From: a virus
Reading direction: 5' to 3' (one strand)
Length of the DNA stretch: 64,000 nucleotides
IMG/VR virus record: IMGVR_UViG_3300045988_162923
The translations under genes were made by a program, and so were the position numbers. The notes beneath the pieces were generated by a model. That model was given only the letters and a program-made list of their open reading frames with translations. It did no database searches and was not told the origin of the DNA. This document shows, piece by piece, positions 1-16,606 of the stretch (position 1 is its first letter; each line of letters starts with the position of its first letter).

Positions 1-397
1 ATTGAACTTGGTATTGAAATGTTTGAAATCCTTGATTATTTTTTGTAGGTTCTGTTCTTAATGTAATTTGTTTAGAAGTAGTAATATCTTTAATAGATAT
101 TAACCACATTTTTAAATTCTTATTAACACAGAATAAATAATCAAGCTTAGAATGATTTAATACATTATCATAGATAGAACCTTTTGTTCCTCCAGTTGAT
201 CGTAAATCAATTGAATCATTTTCAGTCTAAGTAGCTTTACACTATACTGTAAAAAACTAATTATCTTTTTCAATAATTAAATCATACCACTAAGTATCAT
301 TAATTGGTAAAGATACTGTATAACCCTAAATAGTAAAATAATTTATTGCCATACTTAATCCAAGTCTACCAATCTATTTTCTGTTAACTTCATTCAT
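1..397 (-). CDS. Hypothetical protein, 5'-partial in window (runs off left edge); contains >=6 in-frame TAG codons (recoded)
   Basis: Minus-strand ATG at 397. Continuous protein-like translation (MNEVNRKQIGRLGLSMAINYF...) only if TAG is read as sense. No standard-code ORF here. Confidence 0.45.
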
Positions 398-538
398 AAC
401 AATTTATCCTTTATACAACCAGTCCGCCGCAATTGACCACTCTGCCACTCTCCCATATAAATAACTTTAGGTAGTTGAACCACACATCCCGAATGAATAT
501 TTTATTTGCCCATTGGATCATTTGTTCTTCTGGCACAA

Positions 539-679
539 TGGCACTGGTGGCTGGATTTGAACCAACGAATACAGGAGTCTGGCCGTAAATAATAGATTTG
601 AACTATTATCTTCCTATTGGATGTAATTCTTTATACTAATCTACGAAAGTCCTGTGCCTTACCGCTTGGCGACACCAGT
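539..679 (-). tRNA. tRNA gene interrupted by a ~66-nt insertion in the anticodon loop (type I tRNA; mature anticodon unresolved)
   Basis: 5' half ACTGGTG-TC-GCC..GGC-A-CAGGA (acceptor, D arm, anticodon 5' stem) at ~640-679. 3' half TCCTG-TATTC-GTTGG-TTCAAAT-CCAGC-CACCAGT-G-CCA at 539-~575. The halves pair perfectly but are separated by an insert that itself folds as a mini tRNA-like unit (CGTAGAT...AATAG-TTCAAAT-CTATT-ATTTACG-G-CCA). Confidence 0.5.
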
Positions 680-975
680 ATAATTAAACAAGACTCTTAA
701 AAACAAAATTACAAAAAATTCTTTAAAAGAGAATTAAACAGTTATTATGTTAAATAATTTGCTGTTACAGAGTCTTAAATACGAGGGAATCCATATACCA
801 CGTAGGTAATATGAATACGAACAATGCCTAATTGTTTAACCCAGACTACATATTAGGAAAAGGGATGGTTCAGGGGAGGTTATCTGTGTCATCTAGACCT
901 CATTTTTTCATTCTAATACCAATCTACTCAGGGAGATCAATCCTTTTCAATTAAATATCTTTAACAGAACCCTGA

Positions 976-1052
976 TGGTCCGGATGACAGGATTTGAACC
1001 TGCGGCATCTTGAACCCAAATCAAGCGCGATACCAAACTTCGCCACATCCGG
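976..1052 (-). tRNA. tRNA-Pro (anticodon UGG)
   Basis: Minus-strand cloverleaf. Acceptor CCGGATG/CATCCGG, anticodon stem CTTGA/TCAAG with loop TTTGGGT, T-loop TTCAAAT, encoded CCA. Confidence 0.65.
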
Positions 1053-1356
1053 ATATAAACTATTTTAATTAAAATAGTTTAAATATTAAATTAAACTTCA
1101 GGATGCCTAATGAAAAATTCAATAAATAATCCTTCATCCTGCTTATCGTCACAGAAAAGCTCAAGTTCATCACCATGCTGACCAAGCAAAGCTCCAAGAG
1201 CAATATACTGAGAAAGCGCAGATTTCATATTATATCTATCACCCTGCGGACTTACAAGCCACACATTACTATGCGCACGATTAACCGCAGCAATAAAATC
1301 TTCAACCTGAGAAATATTTGTAAGTTTCATTGTAAAATTCCTTTCTATTGGAATAA

Positions 1357-1431
1357 TGGTGCCAAAGGTTGGAATCGAACCAACATGACGGAATTATCAG
1401 TTCCGCATACTAACCGTTATATGACTTCGGC
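1357..1431 (-). tRNA. tRNA-Ile (anticodon GAU)
   Basis: Acceptor GCCGAAG/CTTTGGC (one G-U), anticodon stem CGGAA/TTCCG with loop CTGATAA, T-loop GGTTCGATTCC, CCA encoded. Confidence 0.7.
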
Positions 1432-1480
1432 TTATACAAGACAGATTTTTTAACGGCGTTTTATCCATTTAAACTAATCC

Positions 1481-1530
1481 CCGAAATTGGTCGAGGATAT
1501 AGGATTCGAACCTATAATTTCCGGCTCCCA
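1481..1530 (-). ncRNA. tRNA-like 3' fragment (T-arm + acceptor 3' strand) following the conserved promoter/leader; no matching 5' half found
   Basis: Minus strand ...TATAGG-TTCGAAT-CCTATA-TCCTCGA-C. Lies immediately downstream of a consensus promoter and the conserved leader AAGATAAAGAAAGACA. Confidence 0.3.
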
Positions 1531-1580
1531 AAGCAAATATTATTAATTGCTGATACTGTCTTTCTTTATCTTATATAAAT

Positions 1581-1609
1581 ATTATATCATAAAATTTTTA
1601 TAAAATCAA
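1581..1609 (-). promoter_or_regulatory. Sigma70-type consensus promoter (minus strand): TTGATT-17 nt-TATAAT with TGn extended -10
   Basis: Reverse complement of 1581-1609 reads TTGATTTTATAAAAATTTTATGATATAAT. Member of a >15-copy near-identical promoter family. Confidence 0.6.
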
Positions 1610-1613
1610 AAAT

Positions 1614-1690
1614 TGGCACTTCATTGAGGACTCGAACCTCAAACCCTCTAATTAGAAATCAGATGCTCTCGTCCATTGAGCTAATGAAGT
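1614..1690 (-). tRNA. tRNA-Arg (anticodon UCU)
   Basis: Acceptor ACTTCAT/ATGAAGT, D stem GCTC/GAGC, anticodon stem TCTGA/TTAGA (one G-U) with loop TTTCTAA, T arm TGAGG-TTCGAGT-CCTCA, CCA encoded. Confidence 0.65.
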
Positions 1691-1777
1691 ATATACTAGA
1701 CATAATTAAATGGTACGTCATTTACTTTAAAAAAAATGGCAAAATATTTAATGTTTGCTGTTTATGCCTTTTTAATA

Positions 1778-1925
1778 TGGTAGGGCCGGTTGGATTCGAA
1801 CCAACGATTTGGCAATTTGGCCTAAGACGTTAGATTTGAACTTACATCTTTCTTGCGCACAGACTATTCTACCATTTAAACTAGTCTTAGATAAGTTGCC
1901 GGCCTTACCCCTTGGCCACGACCCC
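1778..1925 (-). tRNA. tRNA gene with a ~85-nt anticodon-loop insertion that itself is a CCA-terminated tRNA-like unit (nested tRNA-like element); mature anticodon unresolved
   Basis: Outer tRNA: GGGGTCG-T-GGCC-AAGGGGTAA-GGCC-G-GCAA(c) ... TTGCC-AAATC-GTTGG-TTCGAAT-CCAAC-CGGCCCT-A-CCA. Inserted unit: CTAAGAC...GTAAG-TTCAAAT-CTAAC-GTCTTAG-G-CCA, a perfect 7-bp acceptor-like helix plus T-arm-like hairpin. Confidence 0.45.
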
Positions 1926-1928
1926 ATA

Positions 1929-2525
1929 TTATTCTAAAATTATTTCCTAAGATAATTGAAATTTTTTACTATTTAAATATTTATAATTAGAAGTTAATGA
2001 ATGACAATTAGGACATAATAATTCTAAATTATCCAATTCATTATGGGTTTTATCTCCATCTTTATGATGAATTTCTAATGGACATTTACCAGTAATAGGA
2101 TTTATTTCTCCCCAACCACATTTCTAACACTTATTATCATATTTCTATAATAAATAAGATCTAATATTATCAGAAATTTTATAAGTATTACCAGTCTTTT
2201 TTAATCCATTTTCTTCACCATTATTAACTTTTTCAATATAAATATTTCTTTCATATTCTCGCTAGCATTTTATAGAACAATATTTATACTATCCTTTTTG
2301 AAGTTCTACTTTACAATTTAAGCAAAATTCTTCTTTAGGTTTTATTCTGTTTAAACATCCACAAGATTTAGTCTATCCTAAAGTTAAATGGCTAGTTTGA
2401 ATTTCTTTTTGATTACCACAATCACACTAACAAAGCCAATAAGTATTACCTTTACGACTTTCTACTTTTTTAAGTGCTACTAACTTTCCAAATCTTTGAC
2501 CTGTTATATCTAATGCTTTTGGCAT
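1929..2525 (-). CDS. HNH homing endonuclease with N-terminal Zn-ribbon DNA-binding repeat (RFGKL...YWLC-Q-CDCGN...SCGC); 6 in-frame TAG codons (recoded)
   Basis: Translation with TAG=Q gives ...LDNLELLCPNCHSLTS plus HHKDGDKTHNELDNLELLCPNCH, a classic HNH motif. The ORF is unreadable in the standard code. It abuts the 5' end of the insertion-containing tRNA at 1925. Confidence 0.7.
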
Positions 2526-2645
2526 ATTAAATTCTCCTTTAATTTAAAAATTTTTCTATTAAATATAAAATTTTAATTTACTGAATTAAAATTTTATGTC
2601 CAAAATTTTCAGCTCCTATTTTTTAAATTATTGGAGTATTTAATT

Positions 2646-2720
2646 GGGGTGACTGGTGGAAATTGAATCCACGACCTTCTGAGCCACAATCAGACGTTCT
2701 ACCAACTGAACTACAGCCAC
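2646..2720 (-). tRNA. tRNA-His (anticodon GUG)
   Basis: GTGGCTGTAGTTCAGTTGGTAGAAC...anticodon loop TTGTGGC...T arm GTGGATTCAATTTCCAC...CAGTCACCCCA. Close to the bacterial tRNA-His consensus. Confidence 0.7.
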
Positions 2721-2721
2721 A

Positions 2722-2798
2722 TGGCATCCCTTGAGAGACTCGAACTCCCAATCTTGTGATTCGTAGTCACACGCTTTATTCCATTAAGCTAAAGGGAT
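2722..2798 (-). tRNA. tRNA-Arg (anticodon ACG)
   Basis: Acceptor ATCCCTT/AAGGGAT, anticodon stem TGTGA/TCACA with loop CTACGAA, T arm GGGAGTTCGAGTCTCTC, CCA encoded. Confidence 0.65.
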
Positions 2799-2803
2799 AA
2801 ATT

Positions 2804-2889
2804 TGGTGCCGGTGGCGGGACTCGAACCCGCACGGTGTTGCCACCGAGGGATTTTAAGTCCCTTGTGTCTGCCATTCCACCACACCGGC
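2804..2889 (-). tRNA. tRNA-Leu (anticodon UAA), type II with long variable arm
   Basis: Acceptor GCCGGTG/CACCGGC, anticodon stem AGGGA/TCCCT with loop CTTAAAA, long variable arm, T-loop GGTTCGAGTCC, CCA encoded. Confidence 0.7.
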
Positions 2890-2930
2890 ATATAAGGGAG
2901 AGATTATTTATCTCTCAACCTTACATATAT

Positions 2931-2959
2931 ATTATATCATAAATTTTTTATAAAATCAA
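2931..2959 (-). promoter_or_regulatory. Consensus promoter TTGATT-17-TATAAT (minus strand), upstream of the His/Arg/Leu tRNA cluster
   Basis: Reverse complement reads TTGATTTTATAAAAAATTTATGATATAAT. Confidence 0.6.
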
Positions 2960-4074
2960 ACAAGATACTTCGTTGTAAAATCAGGAGTATTTTTCTGGAA
3001 AGTAACTTCTTTAATACTCTGAGACTCAGCCTTTTTAATTACAGCCTTGCGCTCATCTTCGTCTTCAATCTGCCAATAATCATCAGGATCAACATAAATC
3101 TTAGTATTTTCACCTTTGATATAAAGCTGTCCATCTCTAAAAGTGATTTTGCTAGGAATAATCGCAAACCGCAATCTATTATCACTCTTAGTATCATATG
3201 CGTCATACCATTCATAAGAAGTCTCAGCCAAATCAATATGACGACCATAAGTTGTATATACTTTACCAGAAGCGAGAGTAACTGTCATATTGAAAGTAAC
3301 AGAACTGCTCTGAGTAATATTAAGATCATTTAGAGTTTCTTCAAGGCTATAACCCTGATTAATTTCAAAAACAATAGCACGCAGATAATCATAAGTCATG
3401 TTAATTGTACGAGAGAAATTAACAATGGAATTAATTACTTCATAATAAGCTGGCAACAACTTATCTTTGAGATATTCTCTAATTTCATTTTCTGTTGGAT
3501 AATTAATCATAAAATGATAATGGAAACGACCGGGACGATTAAGAAGATACTCATTCAACTTACGGGTTTCATTACAAGTAATGACAAAAAGTTTCTTGCC
3601 ATTATCAAGTCCATCGAACAAAGAAAGCATTTCTTCCTGCGGATCACTATGCTCAACTTCGCCAAAAGTCTTTTCAAATTCATCAAAAATAACTACGACT
3701 TCCTGTTCAATAGAGCTAAGAAAATTAGCAATACCCGGAATATATTCATTAACAATGATTACCGGCAATCCATTTTCAATAGCCTTTGCCGCAAGGACGC
3801 GAGCAAATAGAGACTTGCCAATACCTTTCTGACCACTTAAAATAATACCAAAATTACGAGTTGAACACTTATAAGATTTAATTACTTTATTTACTTTTGC
3901 TTCATGATTACCGTAAATCTTTTCTTCATTAATCGACAAATCAGGACGAGAAACCAAGAAAAAGCCAGCCATTTTATTAAAGCTAACTTCAAAAGACATA
4001 GTTGGAAGACGCTTATATGTTTTTACATCTTCACCATAAATTTGAAATCGGCTGCCAGCATTAACAACATTCAT
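2956..4074 (-). CDS. AAA+ ATPase (Walker A GQKGIGKS, Walker B VVVIFDEFEK); standard code
   Basis: 372-aa ORF with no in-frame TAG. P-loop and DExx motifs visible. Embedded between tRNA clusters. Confidence 0.7.
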   Translation of the reverse strand: MNVVNAGSRFQIYGEDVKTYKRLPTMSFEVSFNKMAGFFLVSRPDLSINEEKIYGNHEAKVNKVIKSYKCSTRNFGIILSGQKGIGKSLFARVLAAKAIENGLPVIIVNEYIPGIANFLSSIEQEVVVIFDEFEKTFGEVEHSDPQEEMLSLFDGLDNGKKLFVITCNETRKLNEYLLNRPGRFHYHFMINYPTENEIREYLKDKLLPAYYEVINSIVNFSRTINMTYDYLRAIVFEINQGYSLEETLNDLNITQSSSVTFNMTVTLASGKVYTTYGRHIDLAETSYEWYDAYDTKSDNRLRFAIIPSKITFRDGQLYIKGENTKIYVDPDDYWQIEDEDERKAVIKKAESQSIKEVTFQKNTPDFTTKYLV

Positions 4075-4099
4075 AATTTATATTATCCTTTCTTTCTGT

Positions 4100-4190
4100 T
4101 GGCGCTGGGGGTGGGATTCGAACCCACGGGAGTAATTAGCTCACACAAGTTTTCAAGACTAGGCGCTTATGACCACTTGCGCACCCCAGC
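4100..4190 (-). tRNA. Type II tRNA, probably tRNA-Ser (anticodon UGA) - anticodon stem has one mismatch
   Basis: Acceptor GCTGGGG/CCCCAGC, long variable arm, T-loop GGTTCGAATCC, CCA encoded. Anticodon-loop candidate CTTGAAA. Confidence 0.5.
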
Positions 4191-4367
4191 ATATTCAATT
4201 ACTAGACTCGCAGGACTAGAAAATAAATATTAGAAAAGCAAATAAATCACTTTCCTTATTGAAATACAAAGTTTGTCCAATTACTTACTTTAGATTTTCA
4301 TAATATTTCATCTATCTATTATTAGAAAATATTATTAGTAGTAAATTTTTGCAGTTATCAAGTCTAA

Positions 4368-4459
4368 TGGCGCGGAGGGAGAGATTCGAACTCTCGGACC
4401 GGGTTGCCCCGGTCAAGGGATTAGCAATCCCCCGCACTCGGCCTCTATGCGACCTCCGC
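4368..4459 (-). tRNA. tRNA-Ser (anticodon GCU), type II
   Basis: Acceptor GCGGAGG/CCTCCGC, anticodon stem GGGGA/TCCCT with loop TTGCTAA, long GC-rich variable arm, T-loop GAGTTCGAATCTC, CCA. Confidence 0.7.
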
Positions 4460-4727
4460 ATATATGAAAAATAGAGAGTAAAAAAACGATTTGCTTTACA
4501 GAAAGAGGAGAGAAAACAAAACATGACCACCCATCGAAAGGATGCAAAACAGGAAGTTAAAGAAAAACATAAAACAAACTAGATGTAAAAAACTCTCTCT
4601 ATTGAATAGTTTTTTGTTCCTATATATTCAAATATATAGAAAAGAGTAGTCCTTATTCTTTCAAAGGAATCCCAGCAGCCATACAACATCATTATTCCTA
4701 TATGGATCCTCTCGTGCTGTTCTTCAA

Positions 4728-4804
4728 TGGTGGGCAGAGAAGGTACCGACCCTTCACCCTCTGGTTTTTCAGACCAGTGCTCAGACCTCATAAGCTATCT
4801 GCCC
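4728..4804 (-). tRNA. tRNA-Phe (anticodon GAA) with a non-canonical T-loop (GTCGGTA instead of TTCRANN)
   Basis: Acceptor GGGCAGA/TCTGCCC-A-CCA, D stem GCTT/GAGC (one G-U), anticodon stem CTGGT/ACCAG with loop CTGAAAA, T stem GAAGG/CCTTC. Confidence 0.5.
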
Positions 4805-5150
4805 ATAGAGACAAAAAACAAGACACAATTACTTTCAAATATCATTAGAAATATTTAATGGCTGTTTGTGTCTTTTAATCAATTATAAAGCTATTTAAAT
4901 GTACTTAACCGACTTATTAAAATCACTAGACGTAAAAAGATAATATATAGGACTCGAACCTATTCGTTTTAATTTGCAATTAAAATGTGAAACCAAATCA
5001 CGAAAATTATTCTTAAAGAATATTTGCTGAATACGTCTAACATTATAATGCCTTAGAAGAAACGCAACATCTAAGGACTTACATATTATATTTTATGAAC
5101 AAAATAAGACAATCAAATGAAAAATTGGAGACTGTTCAAATGAATTGAAC

Positions 5151-5224
5151 TGGTTGCGGTCGGCGGAATCGAACCGCGTCTCCGGGTTATGAGCCCAGTA
5201 TCCTACCGTTAGAAGACCACCGCA
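5151..5224 (-). tRNA. tRNA-Met/fMet (anticodon CAU)
   Basis: Anticodon stem CTGGG/CCCGG with loop CTCATAA, T-loop GGTTCGATTCC, CCA encoded. Acceptor has one mismatch. Confidence 0.6.
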
Positions 5225-5225
5225 A

Positions 5226-5302
5226 TGGTGCCTGCCTTTGGATTCGAACCAAATATCTCTAGGGTATGAGTCTAGCGCTTGTTCCTCATAAGCTCCACAG
5301 GC
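5226..5302 (-). tRNA. Second CAU-anticodon tRNA (Met or Ile2-lysidine type); imperfect stems
   Basis: Loop CTCATAC flanked by CTAGA/CCTAG, T arm TTTGGTTCGAATCCAAA, CCA encoded. Adjacent to the other CAU tRNA (typical Met/fMet/Ile2 trio in phages). Confidence 0.5.
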
Positions 5303-5409
5303 ATATTTAATTGTGATGGTTATAAAACTTAATCTAATGCAGGCATCAGACTAATAGAACGCTCCATCAAGTTCTATGCTTCAAAATCGCTTATATCGGG
5401 AAAAGCGAA

Positions 5410-5486
5410 TGGCGATGCTAAGGGGACTCGAACCCCTGACCTTCGGAGAGACAGTCCGACATTCTAGCCAACTGAACTATAGCACC
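5410..5486 (-). tRNA. tRNA-Asp (anticodon GUC)
   Basis: GGTGCTATAGTTCAGTTGGCTAGAAT...stem TCGGA/TCCGA with loop CTGTCTC...T-loop GGGGTTCGAGTCCCC...CCA. Confidence 0.6.
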
Positions 5487-5489
5487 ATA

Positions 5490-6169
5490 TGGTCAGCGCA
5501 AGGGGGATCGAACCCCTACATTCTACCTTTGGTGTTAAGTATAAGATTTGAACTTACATCTTTTCGTACTCTTCTTTTAATCGTTTTATATTTTTACCAT
5601 TTGTAGTATCTAATTGTTGATTGCAATTAGGACAAACCCATCGAAGATTTTCTAATCTATCATCATGATTATGACCATTGACATGATCTAAAATCAAAGT
5701 CAGAGGTTTATCCTACCAAAAAGGTTCTTGCCCGCAAATAGAACATATATAAGGAGTATATTCTCCTTGTAAATAATATTTTCTTAATATTTTCTAATCT
5801 GCGGTAGAATTTTCAATAAAGATATTAGATGGATTTCGTTTTATAGGACGTCTATTTCCTAAAGAAAAATGGTCAGTTGATATATTCAACTAATCTATTC
5901 TTTTTCTAATACGAGTTCCATTATCTCCACTATGAGAACTATATCCTAATTTCTTAGCAACTTCTGCCATAGAACCACTGGATATTACAATTTCTTTAAA
6001 CTATTCATTAGTAAAAGTATCAATTTTTGCTGGCATTTTAAAAATCTCCTATCATTTTTTCTATTATATTTGATTTTTAAGACGCCATCCTTAAAAGAAA
6101 GTGTCCAAAATATTCTTCTTAAACTAACCTAACGAAAGGGTAGTGACTATACCTATTTGTCTATGCGCC
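5490..6169 (-). tRNA. tRNA gene split by a ~610-nt anticodon-loop insertion that contains a complete HNH endonuclease gene plus a tRNA-like mini-helix
   Basis: 5' half CGGCGCA-TA-GAC..GTC-A-CTACC-(ctttcgt...) at 6113-6169. 3' half (..ccaaa)-GGTAG-AATGT-AGGGG-TTCGATC-CCCCT-TGCGCTG-A-CCA at 5490-5530. Anticodon stem CTACC/GGTAG and acceptor CGGCGCA/TGCGCTG pair. The loop begins with the same CTTTCGT as the 539-679 insertion-tRNA. Confidence 0.45.
5554..6036 (-). CDS. HNH homing endonuclease (LDHVNGHNHDDRLENLRWVCPNCN), 4 in-frame TAG codons (recoded); located inside the tRNA anticodon-loop insertion
   Basis: MPAKIDTFTNE-Q-FKEIV... with HNH motif H-x-NGHNHDD...N...CPNC. Continuous only with TAG as sense. 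Confidence 0.65.
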
Positions 6170-6238
6170 GTTAAAAATGTGGGACTTTTGGCGGGAGGCT
6201 CCCACGGGACCTCAGCCTTTTGGTGGTGTAAAAGGCAT

Positions 6239-6314
6239 TGGTGACCCCAGACGGATTCGAACCGCCATCTTAACCTTGAGAGGGTTACCACCTAGCCAAT
6301 TAGTAGATGGGGCC
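6239..6314 (-). tRNA. tRNA-Glu (anticodon CUC) - tentative
   Basis: Acceptor GGCCCCA/TGGGGTC, anticodon stem TAACC/GGTTA with loop CTCTCAA, T-loop GCGGTTCGAATCCGTC, CCA. Confidence 0.55.
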
Positions 6315-6317
6315 AAA

Positions 6318-6500
6318 TTAATTATCAGAAACTAAATTTCTTGACTTTTCTTTTTCTTGTGCGCGTTCATATTTCATTCCCTTACCTTTTTTCGCAGGAG
6401 TTCGAGAACCGCGCCGTTTAAACATCATATATTCTTGAAGTTCATCAGGGCTTTTCTTAAAGATGCGTCTATCAATTTTCTTCTTGGTATTCATTTCCAT
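6318..6500 (-). CDS. Small basic protein (60 aa, K/R-rich)
   Basis: ORF from the track. Composition plausible for a nucleic-acid-binding peptide. No homology claim. Confidence 0.3.
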   Translation of the reverse strand: MEMNTKKKIDRRIFKKSPDELQEYMMFKRRGSRTPAKKGKGMKYERAQEKEKSRNLVSDN

Positions 6501-6618
6501 ATTCCTCCTTCATAAGTCTACACCATTCAAGGAACTGCCATTCAAATTCATCGGATTGGATTTGAGTATCAAAGTCATTGAACATCTTTTTAAATTCCTT
6601 TCTTAACTTTGTAAAAAT

Positions 6619-6648
6619 ATTATATCATATTTTTTTAAAAATGTCAAA
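6619..6648 (-). promoter_or_regulatory. Consensus promoter TTGACA-17-TATAAT (minus strand)
   Basis: Reverse complement reads TTGACATTTTTAAAAAAATATGATATAAT. Confidence 0.6.
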
Positions 6649-6673
6649 AAGAATTTAATATGCTAAATCCTTT

Positions 6674-6757
6674 TGGTGCTCAGAGTGGGACTTGAACCCA
6701 CACGTCTTTCGACAATCGGGTTTGAGCCGATCGCGTCTGCCATTCCGCCACCAGAGC
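6674..6757 (-). tRNA. tRNA-Leu (anticodon CAA), type II
   Basis: Acceptor GCTCTGG/TCTGAGC (one mismatch), anticodon stem ATCGG/CCGAT with loop CTCAAAC, long variable arm, T-loop GGGTTCAAGTCCC, CCA. Confidence 0.65.
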
Positions 6758-7087
6758 ATATCACATTTCGGCGGTTCCGGACCCGCCAAGGCAGTATCAC
6801 CTTAAATAACTTTTATGTCCCCTCTTAAAAAGTCATTCACAAAAAAGCTGGCTTTATGGTTAAGCCTTACCCTCTTTTCCATTTTTCCTTTTGCGTAAAG
6901 CAGTCCAAACAATCAAAAGAGTAAGCATAAAAGATAGCTCCAAGTGATTTATAGACTAACTTGATAAGTCTCGCAGCATCACATATTTTCCAAGTAACTA
7001 ATAAGGTTTAGCTGCCATTTTTCATAAATATAATCTATAATAATAATCCTATATTACATTATGGGCGATTATCATTCCCGTTCTAAT

Positions 7088-7165
7088 TACCATTACCTCA
7101 TTTGGATTCGAACCAAAAACTCCACCCTCTACTGGGCGGCGTGTTTCCATTACACCATAAGGCTT
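7088..7165 (-). pseudogene. tRNA-like sequence with intact T-arm but unpairable acceptor/anticodon stems and no U33 (probable tRNA pseudogene or non-canonical tRNA)
   Basis: T arm TTTGG-TTCGAAT-CCAAA present. Anticodon region CAGTAGA/AGTAGAG ambiguous. No CCA. Confidence 0.25.
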
Positions 7166-7230
7166 ATTAGCAACTTATTTACATAACGATGGAGTTGCCA
7201 ACCACCGGATAGTACAAAGATATCGGCTTA

Positions 7231-7306
7231 TGGTACCGGCGAAAGGACTCGAACCTTCAGATTAATGATCCTAAATCATTCGCCTATGCCATTCGGCTAC
7301 ACCGGT
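7231..7306 (-). tRNA. Type I tRNA with anticodon UAG (would decode CUA, a Leu codon, despite lacking the long variable arm of bacterial tRNA-Leu)
   Basis: Acceptor ACCGGTG/CGCCGGT (one G-U), anticodon stem AATGA/TCATT with loop TTTAGGA, 5-nt variable region AATCT, T arm GAAGG-TTCGAGT-CCTTC, CCA encoded. Confidence 0.55.
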
Positions 7307-7527
7307 ATATGGTGGAAAGAAGTATTTCACCTTTTATAGCGCGCTTCTCCCCGTTCCCGCGCTACCCCTCTCCCAATTAGCTTGATTATGAGAGGATTTT
7401 ACTATGAAGTTCATCATAGTTACCCGATTTCCCTTTGCCTCAGTTTATTTTTAATTGGTCTATTGCCAACGGCAGGTGACTAATCTACCTAGTTCAAACC
7501 GGAAACCCCATGTATAAGACCAATAAT

Positions 7528-7602
7528 GGCGGATACAGAAGGGCTCGAACCTTCGACCCACGGTTTAACAGACCGTTGCTCTGCCAACTGAGCTATGCAT
7601 CC
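7528..7602 (-). tRNA. tRNA-Asn (anticodon GUU)
   Basis: GGATGCATAGCTCAGTTGGCAGAGC...stem ACGGT/ACCGT with loop CTGTTAA...GGTTCGAGCCC...CCA. Confidence 0.7.
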
Positions 7603-7900
7603 ATATTAAATCGCCCTTTTCTTTAACGGTACTTCACAAGTAGGCTAACTCCCGACTTCCTCTTCAAGTTCCAACCAGAATTACTGATGCTCACTGTGTC
7701 TATTTTTCCTCCCATACAGTTTGGATGAATTTTATTTTAGATGACAAAAATAAAATTTAGTTTTAATTGGATTTCACCAAGGAGAGCTTTTTTGTTATTC
7801 GTTCTTTTCATCACTAAGTATGAAGCATCCATCACTCTCGCACAACGTCATCAGCAAGTTTATTGACTCCATCTGAACTGTCATAAAGAAAATTTTCATT
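7603..7900 (-). ncRNA. ~300-nt non-coding region between a consensus promoter (7921-7949) and tRNA-Asn; candidate structured ncRNA or long tRNA leader
   Basis: No ORF in either code. Contains a long A/T hairpin (AAATTTTATTTT...AAAATAAAATT). Transcribed from the promoter on its right. Confidence 0.25.
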
Positions 7901-7920
7901 TTCTTTCATTTGATATAAAT

Positions 7921-7949
7921 ATTATATCATATTTTTTATAAAAAATCAA
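7921..7949 (-). promoter_or_regulatory. Consensus promoter TTGATT-17-TATAAT (minus strand)
   Basis: Reverse complement reads TTGATTTTTTATAAAAAATATGATATAAT. Confidence 0.6.
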
Positions 7950-7989
7950 AAAAGATTTTTTAACTAAACAAAACAAGACAACTTTTTTA

Positions 7990-8065
7990 ATTACGCTGCT
8001 CTACCACTTGAGCTATCGTTTGTAAATTAATACGCACGAGTTGGACTCGAACCAACAACACACGG
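7990..8065 (-). ncRNA. Two juxtaposed tRNA fragments in non-cloverleaf order: a 3' half (T-arm + acceptor 3' strand, 8040-8065) followed by a 5' half-like piece (acceptor/D-arm AAACGATAGCTCAAGTGGTAGAGC, 7990-8030)
   Basis: T arm GTTGG-TTCGAGT-CCAAC-TCGTGCG on the minus strand directly after promoter and leader. D-arm consensus GCTCAAGTGGTAGAGC follows it. The two pieces cannot pair as one tRNA. Confidence 0.3.
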
Positions 8066-8126
8066 ATTACCAATCAATTTAAAAAATTAAAATTGCTGTA
8101 ATTGTCTTTCTTTATCTTACATATAT

Positions 8127-8155
8127 ATTATATCATAAATTTTTTATAAAATCAA
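8127..8155 (-). promoter_or_regulatory. Consensus promoter TTGATT-17-TATAAT (minus strand) followed by conserved leader AAGATAAAGAAAGACA
   Basis: Reverse complement reads TTGATTTTATAAAAAATTTATGATATAAT. Identical to the 2931 and 8388 copies. Confidence 0.6.
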
Positions 8156-8171
8156 AAAATAACTTTTTGAC

Positions 8172-8245
8172 TGGCAGGGGCGCTCCGACTCGAACGGAGA
8201 GTCCCGGTTTTGGAGACCGGTGGTTTACCATTAACCGACACCCCT
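8172..8245 (-). tRNA. tRNA-Trp (anticodon CCA)
   Basis: Acceptor AGGGGTG/CGCCCCT (one G-U), anticodon stem CCGGT/ACCGG with loop CTCCAAA, T-loop CCGTTCGAGTCGG, CCA encoded. Confidence 0.7.
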
Positions 8246-8271
8246 ATAAAATCAAGACTTATAAATTATTT

Positions 8272-8343
8272 TTCCAGAGCGTGGATTTGAACCACGGTCT
8301 TCAGGATTTTACTCTGATAGGCTATCCTCTACCCCACTTCGGA
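8272..8343 (-). tRNA. tRNA, anticodon unresolved (loop AGTAAAATC; 4-bp anticodon stem)
   Basis: Acceptor TCCGAAG/CTCTGGA (one mismatch), T arm CGTGG-TTCAAAT-CCACG. No encoded CCA. Confidence 0.45.
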
Positions 8344-8387
8344 TGACTATTGCTGTAAAAGTCTTTCTTTCTTTATCTTACATATAT

Positions 8388-8416
8388 ATTATATCATTTA
8401 TTTTTTATAAAATCAA
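8388..8416 (-). promoter_or_regulatory. Consensus promoter TTGATT-17-TATAAT (minus strand)
   Basis: Reverse complement reads TTGATTTTATAAAAAATAAATGATATAAT. Conserved leader follows. Confidence 0.6.
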
Positions 8417-8475
8417 AAATAATCTTATAGACTAGAATTGACCAGTATTAAATAGTTTTATTTAATAATAAATAA

Positions 8476-9435
8476 TCAATATCTATCATAGTCTGTATAA
8501 GGAATTCTTAATAAAGGAATATTATTTTTTTTACAATATTTATCCTTCATTTTATCATGTTCAATAACTTTATCTGTATGCCATATACTTGATTGATTAA
8601 AATGCTATTTACCATCATATTCAATTAATTTTAAAACTTTTCCGTTATGATCTAAAATAGCAAAATCAAATCGTAAATAATTTTTATCTTTTAAATCATT
8701 AAAAGTATATTCCTAAATAAAAGAAATATTATTATTTATTAAAATTTTTTTTATTAAATTTTCTCCTAATGAATTCCCTATGCATCCACAGGACTAAGTA
8801 AGTCCCTATAATAGGCTTGATTGCCGAATACTTTTAATATTTCCACAATCACATTGACATACCCAATATGCCTTGTCTTTTTGTTCTTCATCTTTATGTA
8901 GAGCAATTAATTTACCGAATCTTCGTCCAACTAAATTTAATCTTTTAGATTGAATTCCTAAAGGCTAAATATTTTCTATCATATTTATTTTTGCTTTTTC
9001 TTTCTATAAACATCCACAAGACTGAGTATGTTCTGATTTTAAAGATGAAGTAGTAACATTTACAATATTTCCACAGTCACATTTACATTCCCAATAAGAA
9101 GCAGTATTATTTAATTCTTTTCGCTTTAAAATAGTATATTCTTTATTAAAAGATAATACTGTTAATTTACCAAATTTTTGTCCCGATAAATCATCATAAA
9201 AGCTCGGATTATCTTTACGATTTCGATTAATATTTCCTTTTAAACGATTCTCTTTTCCTAAACAACCGCAAGATAAAATTTTTCCATTACGCAAATCAGC
9301 ACCACGAATATTTTTTATTATCCCACAATCACACTAGCATTTCCATAAAAGCTTATTAGAATTATCATGTCCAGCTTCTTCTAAAACTATTAATCTACCA
9401 AAACGCTAATCTATTAAATTTATTTTTTTACCCAA
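8476..9435 (-). CDS. Homing-endonuclease-like protein: three Zn-ribbon repeats (RFGKL..W.C.CDCGN..SCGC) + C-terminal PD-(D/E)XK / DUF559-like nuclease domain (RFDFAI..IEYDGK-Q-HF); TAG-recoded; start approximate (TTG at 9435)
   Basis: ORF-track fragment 9004..9294 is the middle repeat. Full reading frame continuous with TAG=Q. TAG sits at the Q of the DGKQH motif, which is CAA in the paralogue at 22523-23323. Confidence 0.6.
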
Positions 9436-9448
9436 AAATAGACCTTCT

Positions 9449-9500
9449 TTCTGTTCTTCTTTTAATATTATTAAGAAATCTACTTAGAAGAAGAACAGAA
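9449..9500 (-). terminator. Hairpin (12-bp stem TTCTGTTCTTCT/AGAAGAACAGAA) + U-tract on minus strand; terminator after gene 9511-9807
   Basis: Perfect inverted repeat seen in sequence, followed on the minus strand by TCTATTTTT. Confidence 0.45.
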
Positions 9501-9510
9501 AATGACCAAC

Positions 9511-9807
9511 TTAAAGACCTAATTTTTCCATTAAATCCTGGATATGTTTTTTCTCATCTTCAGTAATTTCTTTCTTCTCCTGAACTACTGGAGCAGAATC
9601 TTCAAAATTCATTGCCTTAGAACCAACAGTAGATACATCGCCAACTGGATTCTTAGGACAAGTCATAGAAATAGCAATCTACAGGCGTTCTCCATTCTCG
9701 GTAGCCCAAACATATAATTTACCATCATATTCTCCTATATAATCTTTACCAAATGCTGATGATATTCTACTTTTAACTTCTACTTTCGCAACGCTACCAC
9801 GAGCCAT
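9511..9807 (-). CDS. Small hypothetical protein (98 aa), one in-frame TAG (recoded)
   Basis: MARGSVAKVEVKSR...; ATG overlaps the stop of the upstream nuclease gene (TAATATG). Confidence 0.45.
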
Positions 9808-9808
9808 A

Positions 9809-10546
9809 TTAACTTTCTCCTTTTTTTACAAGATATTTATCACTAAATATCATTTCTATTGTTATATTATTTTTTTCCCAATAAGGAATTCGAACAAGAG
9901 GAATATTATGTTCAAAAGCAAAATAATTTTTTATTAAATCAGATTGCTAAGTCCGTTCAAAAGATTCTCTTCCCCATTTAGCTGGCTTAAAATGCTATTC
10001 ACCATCAAATTCAACCAGTCTAATTAAATTATTATCTTTATCAAAAATAGCAAAATCATATCTTTTATTTTTTAATTCAGAAAATTTAAATTCTTTAGCA
10101 AAAGAAATATTATTTTCTTCTAAAATATCTATAATTTTCTATTCCCCTAAAGATATTCCATTTTTACATCCACAGCTGCTAGTATTTCCACTTCTTAATT
10201 CTGCCCCAGCAACAGATACGATATTTCCGCAATCACATCTACAAATCCATTTTACTTTTCCATTAATACTTTTTGATACTGTATCTTTATATAAAACAGT
10301 TAATTTACCATATTTATTACCAGTCTCATCTTTTCCAATTGCTTCAAAAACTTTTTCATTTCGTAAGCATCCACAACTTTTTGTTGCTCCATTTTTTAAA
10401 CTTAAAGCAGCAATACTTTTTTGATTCCCGCAACTACACTAACAAATCCAATATGTTCTATGATGCTTCTTAGAGGCTTCTTCATCTTTTTTTAAAACAG
10501 TTAATCGTGAAAAAACTTTTCCAATTAAATCTTCAGATTTTGGCAT
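9809..10546 (-). CDS. Homing-endonuclease-like protein: two Zn-ribbon repeats + DUF559-like PD-(D/E)XK domain ([21 protein letters not shown]); TAG-recoded
   Basis: [18 protein letters not shown]...YWIC-Q-CSCGN...SCGC. RBS AAGGAAGAATTTATATG. 4 in-frame TAGs. Confidence 0.6.
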
Positions 10547-10637: not shown

Positions 10638-12083
10638 TTAATTTGTCCCTTCGCCATTATTAGCCTCCATTATTTTCTTCTCTAATTTATTACATTCATC
10701 AAAAACTAATTGCTTTAAATCAAATGGTTCTCCTCGTTCCATATCTTCTGAACACCAAGGACATAAATATTTATGATATTCCTCATTATATTTCATAGAA
10801 CTGCGATAATATCCATTACCGCATCTATCACAAGTCATACATTCATTTTTAAAGCAATCACTACAAACTATTTCGTCTGAATCAACATAATAAGCTTCAT
10901 CTAATAATATTCTGCGACCACAACAGTCACAATATCCAAAAATATCATTTTCACTATCACCATATGCTAATTCACAACTATCACATCGCATAAAATCACT
11001 ATGCTCAATTAATGATTTACCACAATTTAAACAATTAATTTCTCCGCCAATATCCCAATGCCATTCATCAGCATCACTAGCATAAAATCCTCTCGATCGG
11101 ACTGCTATATAAGGTCGATAGCATGAAGAATTTATCAAATCATCAAATTGTAAAGAATTTTTAGCATCTGCTACTTTATCTCTAATTGGATAAATTTTCC
11201 CACCAATTGCAATATAATCAGTATCTAAAGGATATTGCTTACCAGAAATTTTATCAGTATAGCCAGTAATATTACTATCTTCCCATTTATGAAACTCTAC
11301 TCCCATATTATTTAAACACATAGAAATAGTCTCTAAGGCGCTTAAAGTAGAAAGAGGATATTGCCGACCCGCAAAAATTGCTCTCCAATTCTTTTCAAAG
11401 AAAATTAATACTCTCCATTTTTTAGAATTCCAAAGCACATCTTCAGGAAAATTAGGTAATCTTACCCCATCAGCACCTTTTAAATAACAAATTACAGTTG
11501 ATTTATCAACCATATATGAAAGATTTCCTGCGCGATACTCACCGTCAAGCGCATGGCAAGACCGCCAATTATAAGTATTCTCACTTGAACTTAAAAAATC
11601 AAGTGGATGAACTGATATACATAACTTACCCTCAATCTTATCCTCTTGGATAACACGGCTTGCGCTATTTTGAATATCATTCAATAAGTCTTTATCAGAA
11701 ATAAAATACTTAAATGCTTTAACTAGTTTCATGCCTATTGGAATAATTTTACCATCAGGTAATTTATATTCTTCAATAACTTGATTAGTAAAAAATCCAT
11801 CTCTATTAATTTCAATAAAATCAATTAAATCATAATTGCTATATAAGCAATCAATTGTATCCAAAAAATTATTTAAATTCTTTTGTTTTTCTCTTTTATC
11901 AAGCTTTAAATGTAATACATACGGATATTCATAAATTAGATTACCACCAAATAATTCAATAAAATCTCTTTTAGCGTCTAAAAATCTATTAAATAATTCT
12001 TCTGTTTTAGGATTTTCAATTCCTTGTGAATAACGAATTACTTCATCGAATTGTTTTTTAATTTCTCTGATGTCGAATGACAT
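10638..12083 (-). CDS. Cys-rich protein, paralogue A (conserved N-domain + C-terminal multi-CxxC zinc-ribbon cluster); standard code
   Basis: 481-aa ORF. Shares ...C-SxHP-DF/Y...W.SC....E.R.G......WNxKKWR with 14938..16566. C-terminus CLNCG..CDSC..CDCCG..CSDC..CDRCG..CPWC. Confidence 0.65.
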   Translation of the reverse strand: MSFDIREIKKQFDEVIRYSQGIENPKTEELFNRFLDAKRDFIELFGGNLIYEYPYVLHLKLDKREKQKNLNNFLDTIDCLYSNYDLIDFIEINRDGFFTNQVIEEYKLPDGKIIPIGMKLVKAFKYFISDKDLLNDIQNSASRVIQEDKIEGKLCISVHPLDFLSSSENTYNWRSCHALDGEYRAGNLSYMVDKSTVICYLKGADGVRLPNFPEDVLWNSKKWRVLIFFEKNWRAIFAGRQYPLSTLSALETISMCLNNMGVEFHKWEDSNITGYTDKISGKQYPLDTDYIAIGGKIYPIRDKVADAKNSLQFDDLINSSCYRPYIAVRSRGFYASDADEWHWDIGGEINCLNCGKSLIEHSDFMRCDSCELAYGDSENDIFGYCDCCGRRILLDEAYYVDSDEIVCSDCFKNECMTCDRCGNGYYRSSMKYNEEYHKYLCPWCSEDMERGEPFDLKQLVFDECNKLEKKIMEANNGEGTN

Positions 12084-13060
12084 TCAAGTAGGCCTCCTGC
12101 GCAATCATTACAAATTTTCTTAGGATTATTTGGATCAATTTCAAATGGTTCTCCACAATTATCGCACCATTCAATATTTTCTACCATACAATCAGGGCAG
12201 TAAAAACAAGTCTTACCATCTAATCCTTTCACAGGAAAGACCTCATAACCAGAAAATAATCCCTTACATTTCTTACAATGAACATAAAAATCATTATCAC
12301 CTGCGGCTCCATTACTATTATATAAATCTTGGAACCATCTTTTAGCAGATAAACTAAATTCAATATATTTAAAATCTGGGATAGATTCTTTTTGAAGCAT
12401 CTTTTTAACTTTTTCAATAGTATTTAAAAGAGCACTAATATTTAGAGTTTCAATATATGTGTGTTCATTTTCATAACCAACTGATAAATTTGTGCTACAA
12501 ACCTGCCAAGCTGGTCCTAAAATACTAATATCAGAAAAACTACCAAAATCTTCAATAAATCCAAAAGATTCAATATATGCTATAAAATCGTCATTATCAC
12601 ATGAATAGAATACACAATCATTTTTTCCTTGTCTATCCAATTCAATCATATACTTTAACTGCGGAAATGGACAATTCTCTTGAGCCAATACAGATGCTCC
12701 AATGCCGCCTTGTTCTTCATCAGTAGTAAAAATGATATGTGGACGCAAATTTGTAGAACGTAATATCTGAATAATCGCATATACGCCTGCTCGATCATCA
12801 GCTCCAAGGCCCTGCGGACTCCACATAACATTTTTTCTTGTATCATAATATAATTCAGAAACAGGTTTAGGAAAAACTGTATCCATATGGGCTACAAGAG
12901 CGATCGGAATATCACCGACGGCATAAATATAATCCGCAGTAGTTTTTACTGTTTTGTATTTACTCTGAAGAAAATAAGACATAGTTTTAAGTAAGCTGCC
13001 CTGTTTCATTTTAAATAGCTGCTCTAATGTCTCATATTCTTTTGCTTTCAACCCACGCAA
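12038..13060 (-). CDS. M42/M20-family metallopeptidase-like domain (HMDTV...GADDRAG...TDEEQG) fused to C-terminal zinc ribbons; standard code
   Basis: 340-aa ORF. Motifs typical of co-catalytic metallopeptidases. C-terminal CKKCKG..CFYCPDC..CDNCG..CNDC. Overlaps upstream gene by 46 nt. Confidence 0.55.
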   Translation of the reverse strand: MRGLKAKEYETLEQLFKMKQGSLLKTMSYFLQSKYKTVKTTADYIYAVGDIPIALVAHMDTVFPKPVSELYYDTRKNVMWSPQGLGADDRAGVYAIIQILRSTNLRPHIIFTTDEEQGGIGASVLAQENCPFPQLKYMIELDRQGKNDCVFYSCDNDDFIAYIESFGFIEDFGSFSDISILGPAWQVCSTNLSVGYENEHTYIETLNISALLNTIEKVKKMLQKESIPDFKYIEFSLSAKRWFQDLYNSNGAAGDNDFYVHCKKCKGLFSGYEVFPVKGLDGKTCFYCPDCMVENIEWCDNCGEPFEIDPNNPKKICNDCAGGLLECHSTSEKLKNNSMK

Positions 13061-13096
13061 TTAAAAATTTCTCCTTATATTCTATTTTGTAATTAT

Positions 13097-13125
13097 ATTA
13101 TATCATATTTTTTAATTATTGTCAA
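13097..13125 (-). promoter_or_regulatory. Consensus promoter TTGACA-17-TATAAT (minus strand) driving 12038..13060
   Basis: Reverse complement reads TTGACAATAATTAAAAAATATGATATAAT. Confidence 0.55.
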
Positions 13126-13915: not shown

Positions 13916-13924
13916 ATTATATCA

Positions 13925-14072: not shown

Positions 14073-14081
14073 TACGCTATA

Positions 14082-16566: not shown

Positions 16567-16606
16567 TTAGAGTACCAACTCTCACTTTCTTTTATCTTCT
16601 ATATAT

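Follow-up and report, generated by a model that had tools for sequence, protein, structure and literature searches.

Probable mobile introns shaped like small tRNAs interrupt the anticodon loops of gut phage tRNA genes and may be removed by tRNA end-processing enzymes

In IMG/VR record IMGVR_UViG_3300045988_162923, a phage genome of around 200 kb, we analyzed a stretch of 64 kb (hereafter, the window) in which three tRNA genes are interrupted within their anticodon loops by units that themselves resemble small tRNAs. Related units interrupt tRNA genes in many other viral contigs. We propose that they are mobile introns that mimic precursor tRNAs (pre-tRNAs), that RNase P and an RNase Z-type enzyme cut them out, and that an RNA ligase joins the exons, a reading to which we assign a probability of around 0.55. 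The DNA-level facts on which this proposal is built are observed directly, and the splicing and the ligase are what we infer from them.

An earlier note on this sequence had reported three minus-strand copies of the motif AAGAT-N3-AGTTCAAATCT, and these are indeed present: exact matches (AAGATNNNAGTTCAAATCT) are located on the minus strand at 594-612, 1832-1850, and 5544-5562, whereas dinucleotide shuffles give an expectation of 0.20 copies by chance, with none of 100 shuffles reaching three. All of them lie in the leftmost 8.4 kb of the window, a dense minus-strand array with 19 tRNAs according to ARAGORN and around 21 according to Rfam. Each motif corresponds to the variable loop and T-arm of a tRNA-like unit. 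As the note had described, the T-arm leads into a 7-nt strand forming the 3′ side of the acceptor stem, then a discriminator and CCA, and a tRNA 3′ half begins directly after the unit; the matching 5′ half is found upstream (Table 1). The coordinates originally given were off by 12 to 25 nt from the exact units, and the suggested size of around 65 to 75 nt holds for the first two copies (66 and 73 nt), but the third is a 604-nt member that bears an open reading frame (ORF). A complementary 5′ acceptor strand had been described for two of the copies, where it is indeed found, but the third has one too, GTTAGGT pairing with ACTTAAC, which is located 570 nt upstream because an ORF for an HNH endonuclease lies between the D-arm and the T-arm.

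Table 1. Interrupted tRNA genes, tRNA-like introns, and HNH ORFs of the window (arrays of coordinates refer to the 64-kb stretch)
Feature	Coordinates	Strand	Details
Interrupted tRNA-Gln(UUG)	539..679	-	5′ exon 679..646, intron 645..580, 3′ exon 579..539 including CCA
tRNA-like intron 1, 66 nt	580..645	-	Acceptor CGTAGAT/ATTTACG, U8, 3-bp D-arm, discriminator G, CCA
Interrupted tRNA-Ile(UAU)	1778..1925	-	5′ exon 1925..1891, intron 1890..1818, 3′ exon 1817..1778
tRNA-like intron 2, 73 nt, ORF-less	1818..1890	-	Acceptor CTAAGAC/GTCTTAG, U8-A9, G, CCA
Interrupted tRNA-Glu(UUC)	5490..6170	-	5′ exon 6170..6134, intron 6133..5530, 3′ exon 5529..5490
tRNA-like intron 3, 604 nt	5530..6133	-	Acceptor GTTAGGT/ACTTAAC (7/7 paired), U8-A9, discriminator A, CCA
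Intron-3 HNH ORF, 160 aa	5554..6036	-	Four in-frame TAG read as Gln; stop inside the T-arm of the intron
Free-standing HNH ORF, 198 aa	1929..2525	-	Seven TAG; abuts the interrupted tRNA-Ile upstream; Pfam HNH 21.9 bits (above cut-off), HNH_3
tRNA-Tyr(GUA), fourth interrupted tRNA	1..454	-	5′ exon 454..420, interrupted after G34; intron from 419 leftwards

Removal of the unit leaves a 7-nt anticodon loop with U33 and A37 in all three genes. The predicted spliced products are perfect cloverleaves with the loops CUUUGAC, CUUAUAA, and CUUUCAA, which ARAGORN calls tRNA-Gln(UUG), tRNA-Ile(UAU), and tRNA-Glu(UUC), and the interrupted genes are the only ones for these anticodons in the array of the window. 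With its default settings, the same program misses all three. In intron mode, it reports introns of exactly 66, 73, and 604 nt, and since it places introns arbitrarily, it miscalls the anticodons of the Gln, Ile, and Glu genes as Glu, Trp, and SeC. For the Gln gene, the Rfam tRNA model bridges positions 542-679 with a 69-nt insertion (48.8 bits).

Within the units themselves, a mini hairpin (TCC-AATA-GGA) replaces the anticodon arm in intron 1, whose T-arm is AATAG-TTCAAAT-CTATT. Intron 2 presents a D-arm (GTTT-AAATGGTA-GAAT) with A14, G18, G19, and A21, a 3-bp mini stem, and a T-arm (GTAAG-TTCAAAT-CTAAC) with one A.A mismatch, while in intron 3 the D-arm (GTTT-AAGAA-GAAT) and the T-arm (GTAAG-TTCAAAT-CTTAT) enclose the ORF-bearing central region. 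The earlier note had recommended a covariance-model search as a check. A model built from short family members and run over the whole window with filters off finds the three copies only, with 72, 65, and 33 bits for introns 2, 1, and 3, and further members of the family appear in other phage contigs; the 33-bit match corresponds to the 3′ part of intron 3, which was not used in building the model, and the other matches in the window are ordinary tRNAs with no more than 32 bits.

The boundaries of the units can be established from alleles in which they are absent. A close relative of the phage, IMG/VR contig 3300045988_151351 (201 kb; loci L006 and L121), in which the neighboring ATPase is 99% identical, carries uninterrupted genes for tRNA-Glu(UUC) and tRNA-Gln(UUG) that equal the predicted spliced products (76/77 and 72/75 identical, respectively). 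Pairwise alignment with L121 gives single clean gaps of 604 nt, with flanks that are 94% identical, and of 66 nt, with flanks that are 97% identical, and each gap begins at base 1 of the acceptor stem and ends with the A of CCA, without any junction ambiguity. Likewise, the exons of a tRNA-Gly(UCC) gene with an 847-nt insert (L113) are identical at 76/76 to uninterrupted genes in L131, L135, and L137. With these exact gaps and near-identical flanks, the units can be recognized as exact insertions of recent mobility that start and stop where the tRNA-like fold does, in the presence/absence pattern of a mobile (homing) intron. According to the empty-site alleles, the junctions lie at 35/36 in the Gln gene and 36/37 in the Glu gene, and other family members are inserted at 34/35. 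The intact host exons and the exact restoration of the loop suggest that splicing would restore the product of the host gene.

To find relatives, fetched loci were screened for a T-arm with an acceptor 3′ strand and a tail behind it and for a pairing 5′ strand no more than 1.6 kb upstream, and a candidate was accepted only if its deletion yielded an ARAGORN tRNA call with the junction in the anticodon loop. Around 30 distinct inserts of 50 to 875 nt were obtained from at least 25 viral contigs of gut phages, in 11 host tRNA species: Gln-UUG, Glu-UUC, Ile-UAU, Lys-UUU, Gly-UCC, Thr-UGU, Pro-UGG, Asp-GUC, Asn-GUU, Tyr-GUA, and amber suppressor CUA. Insert removal also restores the loop in 24 hits from other contigs. 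All members have in common an acceptor stem of 7 bp directly next to a T-stem of 5 bp whose loop has 7 nt, together with a single-stranded 3′ tail. U8, a D-arm (often TAGTTTAAATGG... with A14, G18, G19, and A21), and an AAAGAT linker are present in most of them as well. The region of the anticodon arm is variable, since it may contain a mini hairpin of 3 to 4 bp whose sequence covaries (TCC/GGA, TCT/AGA, TTG/CAA, and TTTC/GAAA), no hairpin at all (58-nt L027 and 50-nt L411), or a long stem that encloses an ORF.

The fold of these units is supported by covariation. Over 26 members, the 12 pairs of the minihelix are paired in 97% of cases, with double changes in 11 of the 12, and the covariation score of the 26 cores is 0.97, compared with 0.24 for shuffled partners and 0.11-0.18 for slid ones. 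RNAalifold, run independently, predicts the same two helices. For the tRNA-Ile introns, the T-arm motif was the only criterion of retrieval, and their acceptor stems show full compensation, with CTAAGAC/GTCTTAG in the window and CCAAGAT/ATCTTGG, CCAAAAT/ATTTTGG, and CTGTGGG/CTCACAG at the same tRNA-Ile site elsewhere. Moreover, the ORF-less members range from 50 to 123 nt, and those of 50 to 106 nt retain the fold, as would be expected from selection for removal from a needed tRNA. Intron 3 has an orthologue, a 607-nt intron in the tRNA-Glu of L133.

Outside of these contigs, one pattern scan of 185,579 species-representative genomes of bacteria and archaea yielded ordinary tRNAs and just one copy of the unit, which lies on a contig of 4.4 kb in a Clostridium metagenome-assembled genome bin. 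A second DNA pattern, consisting of the D-arm plus the stem, was too AT-rich for specificity, and only known members were found again with it. The deposited phage genomes of INPHARED contain no copies of the unit and no counterpart of the window region or of the interrupted genes. Separately, a 453-nt intron in a tRNA-Met gene (L129), which has no group I match, was set aside as a different, unclassified intron.

It could be argued that these units are just ordinary tRNA pseudogene debris, nested genuine tRNA genes, or transposons similar to miniature inverted-repeat transposable elements with 7-bp terminal inverted repeats, given that they have tRNA-like T- and D-arms and that ARAGORN with relaxed thresholds calls the second copy a tRNA-Arg. 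We find this hardly credible. The inserts lack an anticodon arm, they are not called by default ARAGORN, and the Rfam tRNA model misses inserts 1 and 2 at E<=10 (positions 400-2000) and all three at E<=1 (positions 1-10000); they form a covarying family of their own, so that the debris explanation, which the earlier note had itself raised as the finding that would undo its proposal, does not apply. In addition, no target-site duplications are seen at the Gln and Glu insertions in the alignment with L121, and the terminal repeats differ between copies yet stay complementary, which indicates an RNA constraint rather than a transposase-binding constraint.

A different objection is that the units might be selfish elements that break dispensable phage tRNA genes; the insert might still be released by RNase P and RNase Z, but the halves of the host tRNA would never be rejoined, the product being a tRNA-like RNA, such as a defence decoy, or nothing. 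Near-identical phages differ by the recent presence or absence of the insert in the Gln and Glu genes, so these two genes could be freshly broken, and because the insertions are young, they alone cannot prove that interrupted genes stay functional. Furthermore, the tRNA-Ile intron of the window is around 92% identical (manual count) to that of L006 although the exons of the host tRNA-Ile genes are strongly different, which suggests recent spread, and no ligase gene has been found. Nevertheless, removal of the insert leaves a perfect cloverleaf with a 7-nt loop in every host gene examined, and the insert length is always exactly that which restores the loop, which makes simple breakage unlikely. 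The case for function is based on three further observations, namely that the diverged tRNA-Ile hosts are intact, with a compensated change in the anticodon stem (GGCAA/TTGCC vs GGCGA/TCGCC), that ORF-less inserts keep their fold by compensatory change, which a dead insertion would have no reason to do, and that the interrupted genes are, as mentioned above, the sole ones for their anticodons in the array.

The most telling result of our analysis is that the 3′ boundary of the intron follows the 3′-end format of the phage's own tRNA genes. At loci where the introns have 4-nt tails (NCCA; NCAA in one phage and CCCT once), 209 of 229 tRNA genes encode CCA (18/18 loci), whereas at loci with tails of 1 to 2 nt only 4 of 83 do so (0/8 loci), in a comparison whose loci are not all phylogenetically independent. 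The encoded CCA that had been noticed in the window is present in all three copies there, but within the family at large only some of the members have it. This correlation points to the general tRNA 3′-end machinery.

In the mechanism that we propose, the primary transcript would fold so that the intron resembles a pre-tRNA. RNase P would cut at position -1/+1 of the intron, leaving a 3′-OH on the 5′ exon, and an RNase Z-type tRNA 3′-end endonuclease would cut after the intron tail, leaving a 5′-phosphate on the 3′ exon; this second cut would follow A76 in phages whose tRNA genes have an encoded CCA and the discriminator in those whose genes lack it. The exons could then be sealed by an ATP-dependent RNA ligase similar to T4 Rnl1, an enzyme of anticodon-loop nick repair, giving a normal 7-nt loop, while at the DNA level an endonuclease could drive homing into tRNA alleles that have no intron. 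The minimal unit for RNase P, RNase Z, and the CCA-adding enzyme consists of an acceptor/T-arm minihelix and a single-stranded tail, and all of the approximately 30 members have this structure of a processing element (a 7-bp acceptor stem on a 5-bp T-stem, plus a tail). The ends left by RNase P and RNase Z, a 3′-OH on the 5′ exon and a 5′-phosphate on the 3′ exon, are those on which Rnl1/Rnl2-type ligases act when they seal anticodon loops.

Cleavage by these two enzymes would be in agreement with the boundaries seen in the DNA, which lie at the corresponding sites, and with the match between the tail and the CCA status of the phage. RNase Z cuts just after the discriminator in CCA-less precursors or just after CCA in CCA-containing ones, and it requires prior 5′ maturation and, strictly, an acceptor stem (PMC7479834). 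The tRNase Z of T. maritima cuts precisely after A76 (PMC1540738), and RNase E of E. coli can produce mature CCA ends in one endonucleolytic step (PMC5291269). The earlier note had offered RNase P/tRNase Z substrates, mobile mini-elements, and excised introns as separate possibilities, but the evidence fits a combination of all three, in view of the precise placement in the anticodon loop, the presence/absence polymorphism, the association with homing endonucleases, and the boundaries that equal the 5′ and CCA ends of the tRNA-like fold.

It is also conceivable, if improbable, that the units are true introns removed by a dedicated and perhaps phage-encoded endonuclease and ligase (of the archaeal endonuclease/RtcB type or Pnkp-like), for which the fold would be a handle. 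Other common gut phages carry, beside their tRNA array, a gene for a kinase-phosphatase-Rnl1 ligase of 737 aa, a conserved AAA ATPase and proteins of unknown function are encoded in or beside the tRNA array, and the tails that are 2 nt long or read NCAA or CCCT are a poor fit to RNase Z. However, the units have no bulge-helix-bulge (BHB), a motif in which a 4-bp helix lies between 3-nt bulges on opposite strands, one for each splice site, since both junctions face each other across one internal loop, and the position of the junction varies from 34/35 to 36/37 according to the empty-site alleles. Moreover, the Pnkp-bearing loci are without introns and the intron-bearing loci are without an Rnl1 homologue, and the correlation between the tail and CCA favors the general 3′-end machinery over a dedicated system. 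We accordingly rejected an assignment to the BHB tRNA introns, as both junctions lie in the internal loop between the host anticodon stem and the acceptor stem of the intron and not at 37/38.

As for the Pnkp-like protein, which was detected in a motif screen for ligases, it is encoded directly beside the tRNA array at L326 (2603-4813) and at around 80 near-identical loci (L327-L405) of a common gut phage of around 135 kb, and it is a trifunctional protein with the architecture of Pnkp-like repair: a P-loop kinase, a calcineurin-type phosphoesterase, and an Rnl1-type ligase (Pfam RNA_lig_T4_1, 7.6e-36). No tRNA-like introns were found in this lineage (L326-L405), where the "introns" called by ARAGORN are chimeras of neighboring tRNAs.

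That the units are self-splicing or self-cleaving ribozymes, either degenerate group I or group II introns or a new small ribozyme, seems very improbable to us. Their location is indeed the one typical of group I tRNA introns in bacteria, and the homing-endonuclease genes of both are of like kinds. Against this, searches with Rfam at E<=1 give no match to group I, group II, or small ribozymes in window positions 1-10000 or in the 845-nt intron of L177, members of 50 to 73 nt are far too small for a group I core, the last base of the introns is A or T and not G, and only the tRNA-like helices are conserved around the junctions. Three assignments to known families were also tried and rejected: group I introns, given the lack of an Intron_gpI match (cmscan, E<=1), the shortness of the ORF-less members compared with a core of around 200 nt, and the lack of a terminal G; group II introns, given the lack of an Rfam match and 5′ ends that vary (CGTAG, CTAAG, GTTAG, GATGA, and others) where GUGYG would be expected; and YrlA (RF02553, gathering score 69 bits), which has no match to the inserts.

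Several observations weigh against the RNase P/RNase Z proposal in addition to the youth of the Gln and Glu insertions. The set of sequences used for covariation was, for most members, selected for pairing, and thermodynamic (minimum free energy) folding alone gives weak signals, with z-scores of -1 to -2.3. With Pfam and PHROGs, around 30 proteins of the window, which covers 64 kb of a genome of around 200 kb, include no recognizable RNA ligase, RtcB, or RNase, tblastn with an Rnl1-type ligase finds no homologue in the window or in the intron-bearing loci, and there is no ligase in the flanks of L121. The tails do not always obey a simple RNase Z rule either: both introns of one phage (L005, 3023-3084 and 9635-9701) have NCAA tails and the intron at L044 (9597..9475) ends in CCCT although the tRNA genes of both phages encode CCA, and several CCA-less introns have tails of 2 nt, not 1 nt. 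Lastly, RNase Z of B. subtilis is inhibited 1520-fold by CCA with Mg2+ (PMC7479834), and, given that the terminase suggests a phage of a Firmicutes type, it is hard to assign a cut after CCA to an enzyme.

The mobility of the units can be associated with several families of homing endonucleases. The HNH ORF of intron 3 matches the Pfam HNH family with E=1.3e-3, below the curated cut-off, but an H-N-H/CxxC motif (DHVNGHNHDDRLENLRWVCPNCN) is visible; its stop codon is located 24 nt from the intron end, and the protein has 27 homologues (38-64% identity) in phage tRNA arrays. At the loci of these homologues, a strict CCA-based pipeline found no intron, but inspection revealed CCA-less intron relatives and many free-standing copies. 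HNH ORFs are present in introns of the window, L133, L177, L195, L191, and L197, a GIY-YIG enzyme with a C-terminal domain like that of the HNH enzymes (Pfam, 6e-13) is encoded in the intron of L012, and PD-(D/E)XK enzymes (Pfam PDDEXK_5, 7e-16) are encoded in tRNA-Tyr introns. The GIY-YIG and PDDEXK_5 matches are above the Pfam cut-offs, while the intron HNH ORFs are below them. The stop codon of an intron ORF is always 21 to 34 nt from the intron end, within the T-arm, which explains the conserved AAGATGTAAG of the motif originally described and implies that the ORF-less copy 2 descended from an ORF-bearing ancestor.

Related endonucleases are also found as free-standing genes beside uninterrupted target tRNAs. 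For instance, at L409 and L411-L413, a PD-(D/E)XK ORF stands free beside an intact tRNA-Tyr. In the window, the free-standing HNH ORF next to the interrupted tRNA-Ile is a candidate for mobilizing the ORF-less intron 2 in trans. The fourth interrupted gene of the window, for tRNA-Tyr, has an intron whose PD-(D/E)XK ORF (PDDEXK_5, E=7e-16) starts at 397 and runs off the window edge, and L121 has an uninterrupted tRNA-Tyr. Complete relatives of this Tyr intron at L410, L406, and L407 have an acceptor stem, a T-arm, and a tail, with no evident D-arm; that of L410 (1176-1620) has the acceptor GGTAGAA/TTCTATC and a TCCA tail, and those of L406 and L407 have a tail of 1 nt. In addition, three TAG-rich ORFs on the minus strand of the window (8476-8982, 9809-10546, and 22523-23323) have repeated W-x-C-x-C-x-C-G zinc-knuckle-like N-terminal modules, with a DUF2726/DUF5889-type C-terminal domain in the first two, and they are probably further free-standing homing endonucleases.

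The phage itself is AT-rich, and the closest large terminases are those of the Enterococcus phages VRE9_4, H1, and EF1, Geobacillus virus E3, and the gut phage Phass-1. These matches, together with the pattern of in-frame TAG codons, indicate a large Firmicutes-type siphovirus that reads TAG as Gln, and not a crAss-like phage. In-frame TAG codons abound in the late structural genes, with up to 10 in a gene, and in every ORF for a homing endonuclease, but are nearly absent from the early minus-strand genes, as can be seen by comparing the plus strand at 50742-63741 with the minus strand at 10638-28529, which fits a TAG-to-Gln recoding limited to late expression. A suppressor tRNA(CUA) gene is located just beyond the window, corresponding to 15696-15770 in L121. 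In two related phages (L158, 18413-18487, and L168, 16196-16272), the amber-suppressor tRNA(CUA) is interrupted by a tRNA-like intron of 75 and 77 nt, respectively, and these suppressor-tRNA introns have the unusual T-loop GGCAGTA or GGCGGTA. In such genes, removal of the intron could control when recoded genes are translated.

The tRNA array has some other features of its own. A promoter-like block, TTTTGATTTTATAAAAAATTTATGATATAAT, is repeated in near-identical minus-strand copies at around 1550-1608, 2920-2955, 6600-6650, 7900-7950, 8095-8160, and 8360-8420; the blocks precede tRNA and YrlA-like units, usually with the leader GATAAAGAAAGAC coming next in those positions, which suggests many short independent transcription units within the array. 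On the minus strand, ARAGORN finds at 7093-7164 a tRNA whose anticodon loop ("gtag") has 8 nt and at 4939-5010 a very AT-rich "tRNA-Cys" without Rfam support, and Rfam finds a tRNA with a CAT anticodon region (5155-5223, 47.9 bits) that ARAGORN misses. The genes of the conserved AAA ATPase mentioned above and of several uncharacterized proteins lie within or beside the array. Two large paralogous proteins of 481 and 633 aa (10638-12083 and 14665-16566, minus strand), with cysteine-rich C-termini and the shared motif C-[IL]-S-[VI]-HP-[LM]-D ... W-[RD]-SC, adjoin it; neither has a Pfam match, and only the 481-aa protein has a PHROG match, to a family whose function is unknown.

To our knowledge, only two ways of removing tRNA introns have been established, self-splicing group I RNA and a BHB endonuclease with a ligase. 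Full-text literature searches returned no description of tRNA-shaped introns in phage tRNA genes, and papers on related recoded gut phages make no mention of them. As far as these searches extend, the architecture is previously undescribed, and the mechanism is best described as a well-motivated proposal. Only tentatively, and with odds slightly below even, would we say that the units constitute a third mechanistic class of tRNA introns, in which a pre-tRNA mimic is cut by universal end-processing enzymes and an RNA ligase seals the exons, a class common across gut phages, with at least three families of homing endonucleases and with suppressor tRNAs among the hosts. If the proposal is correct, tRNA introns would have a further splicing logic, one that relies on housekeeping enzymes throughout; homing endonucleases would have gained a new niche, and bacteria would offer a natural case of programmed RNA cutting and ligation. 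Given the suppressor tRNAs among the hosts, the introns may bear on the timing of stop-codon recoding, and splicing could gate the switch of a phage to its TAG-recoded code, as in L158 and L168. There is also a practical consequence for annotation, as standard tools miss or mis-assign these phage tRNAs. Members of 50 to 70 nt are small enough for direct in vitro work.

Among known systems, the group I tRNA introns of bacteria and phages, such as those of cyanobacterial tRNA-Leu(UAA) and of tRNA-fMet with I-Ssp6803I, are similar to the phage units in their position in the anticodon loop, their presence/absence polymorphism, their ORF-bearing and ORF-less forms, their HNH, GIY-YIG, and PD-(D/E)XK endonucleases, and the free-standing ORF relatives beside the target gene. 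The phage units differ from them in having no catalytic core and no terminal G, in including members of 50 to 73 nt, and in conserving an acceptor/T-arm minihelix. The BHB introns of archaea and eukaryotes are likewise short, without catalytic RNA, located in the anticodon loop, and presumably removed by a protein or ribonucleoprotein and followed by ligation. In contrast to them, the phage units have no BHB, have their junctions at 34/35 to 36/37 and not at 37/38, occur in a bacterial virus, and are themselves tRNA mimics; the end chemistry should also be different, with 3′-OH and 5′-phosphate expected for the phage units and 2′,3′-cyclic phosphate and 5′-OH for the BHB introns.

The tRNA-like domain of YrlA and other bacterial Y RNAs and the Streptococcus small RNA SpF41 are also small RNAs with acceptor, D, and T elements and no anticodon function. 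However, YrlA is circularly permuted and encoded by a stand-alone gene, and neither YrlA nor SpF41 is an intervening sequence; SpF41 gives a weak match on intron 1 (24.7 bits, E=0.39), far below its gathering score. YrlA-like RNAs do seem to be present elsewhere in the window, with minus-strand matches below the gathering score of 69 at 7971-8080 (38.2 bits, E=1e-5) and 1433-1543 (26.9 bits, E=0.02). Each lies behind a strong promoter-like sequence and has the permuted order of T-arm, closed acceptor stem, and D-arm; at 1433-1543, the loop that closes the acceptor contains ACCA, and the D-arm (TAGTTTAAATGGATAAAAC) resembles that of the introns. YrlA-like modules flanked by ACAGCAA...GTCTTG recur in related phages, where they mislead the intron mode of ARAGORN.

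The last step that we propose, the sealing of a nick in the anticodon loop, has its counterpart in the T4 Pnkp/Rnl1 repair of tRNA-Lys cut by PrrC and in bacterial Pnkp/Hen1. Such repair answers damage, whereas the nicks of the phage units would be programmed, and in the available sequence of the intron-bearing phages no ligase has been found. Lys-UUU, Glu-UUC, and Gln-UUG are frequent hosts of these introns, and the same tRNAs are frequent targets of anticodon nucleases. With regard to excision, the closest parallels are mascRNA (MALAT1), MEN-beta, plant mitochondrial t-elements, and mitochondrial tRNA punctuation, in which an embedded tRNA mimic marks, at its 5′ and 3′ ends, the exact sites that RNase P and RNase Z cleave, and in both the mascRNA-type elements and the phage units the mimic is without a functional anticodon arm. 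However, mascRNA-type elements separate transcripts from each other, whereas the phage units interrupt a functional RNA whose flanks need to be rejoined, and they are mobile together with homing endonucleases.

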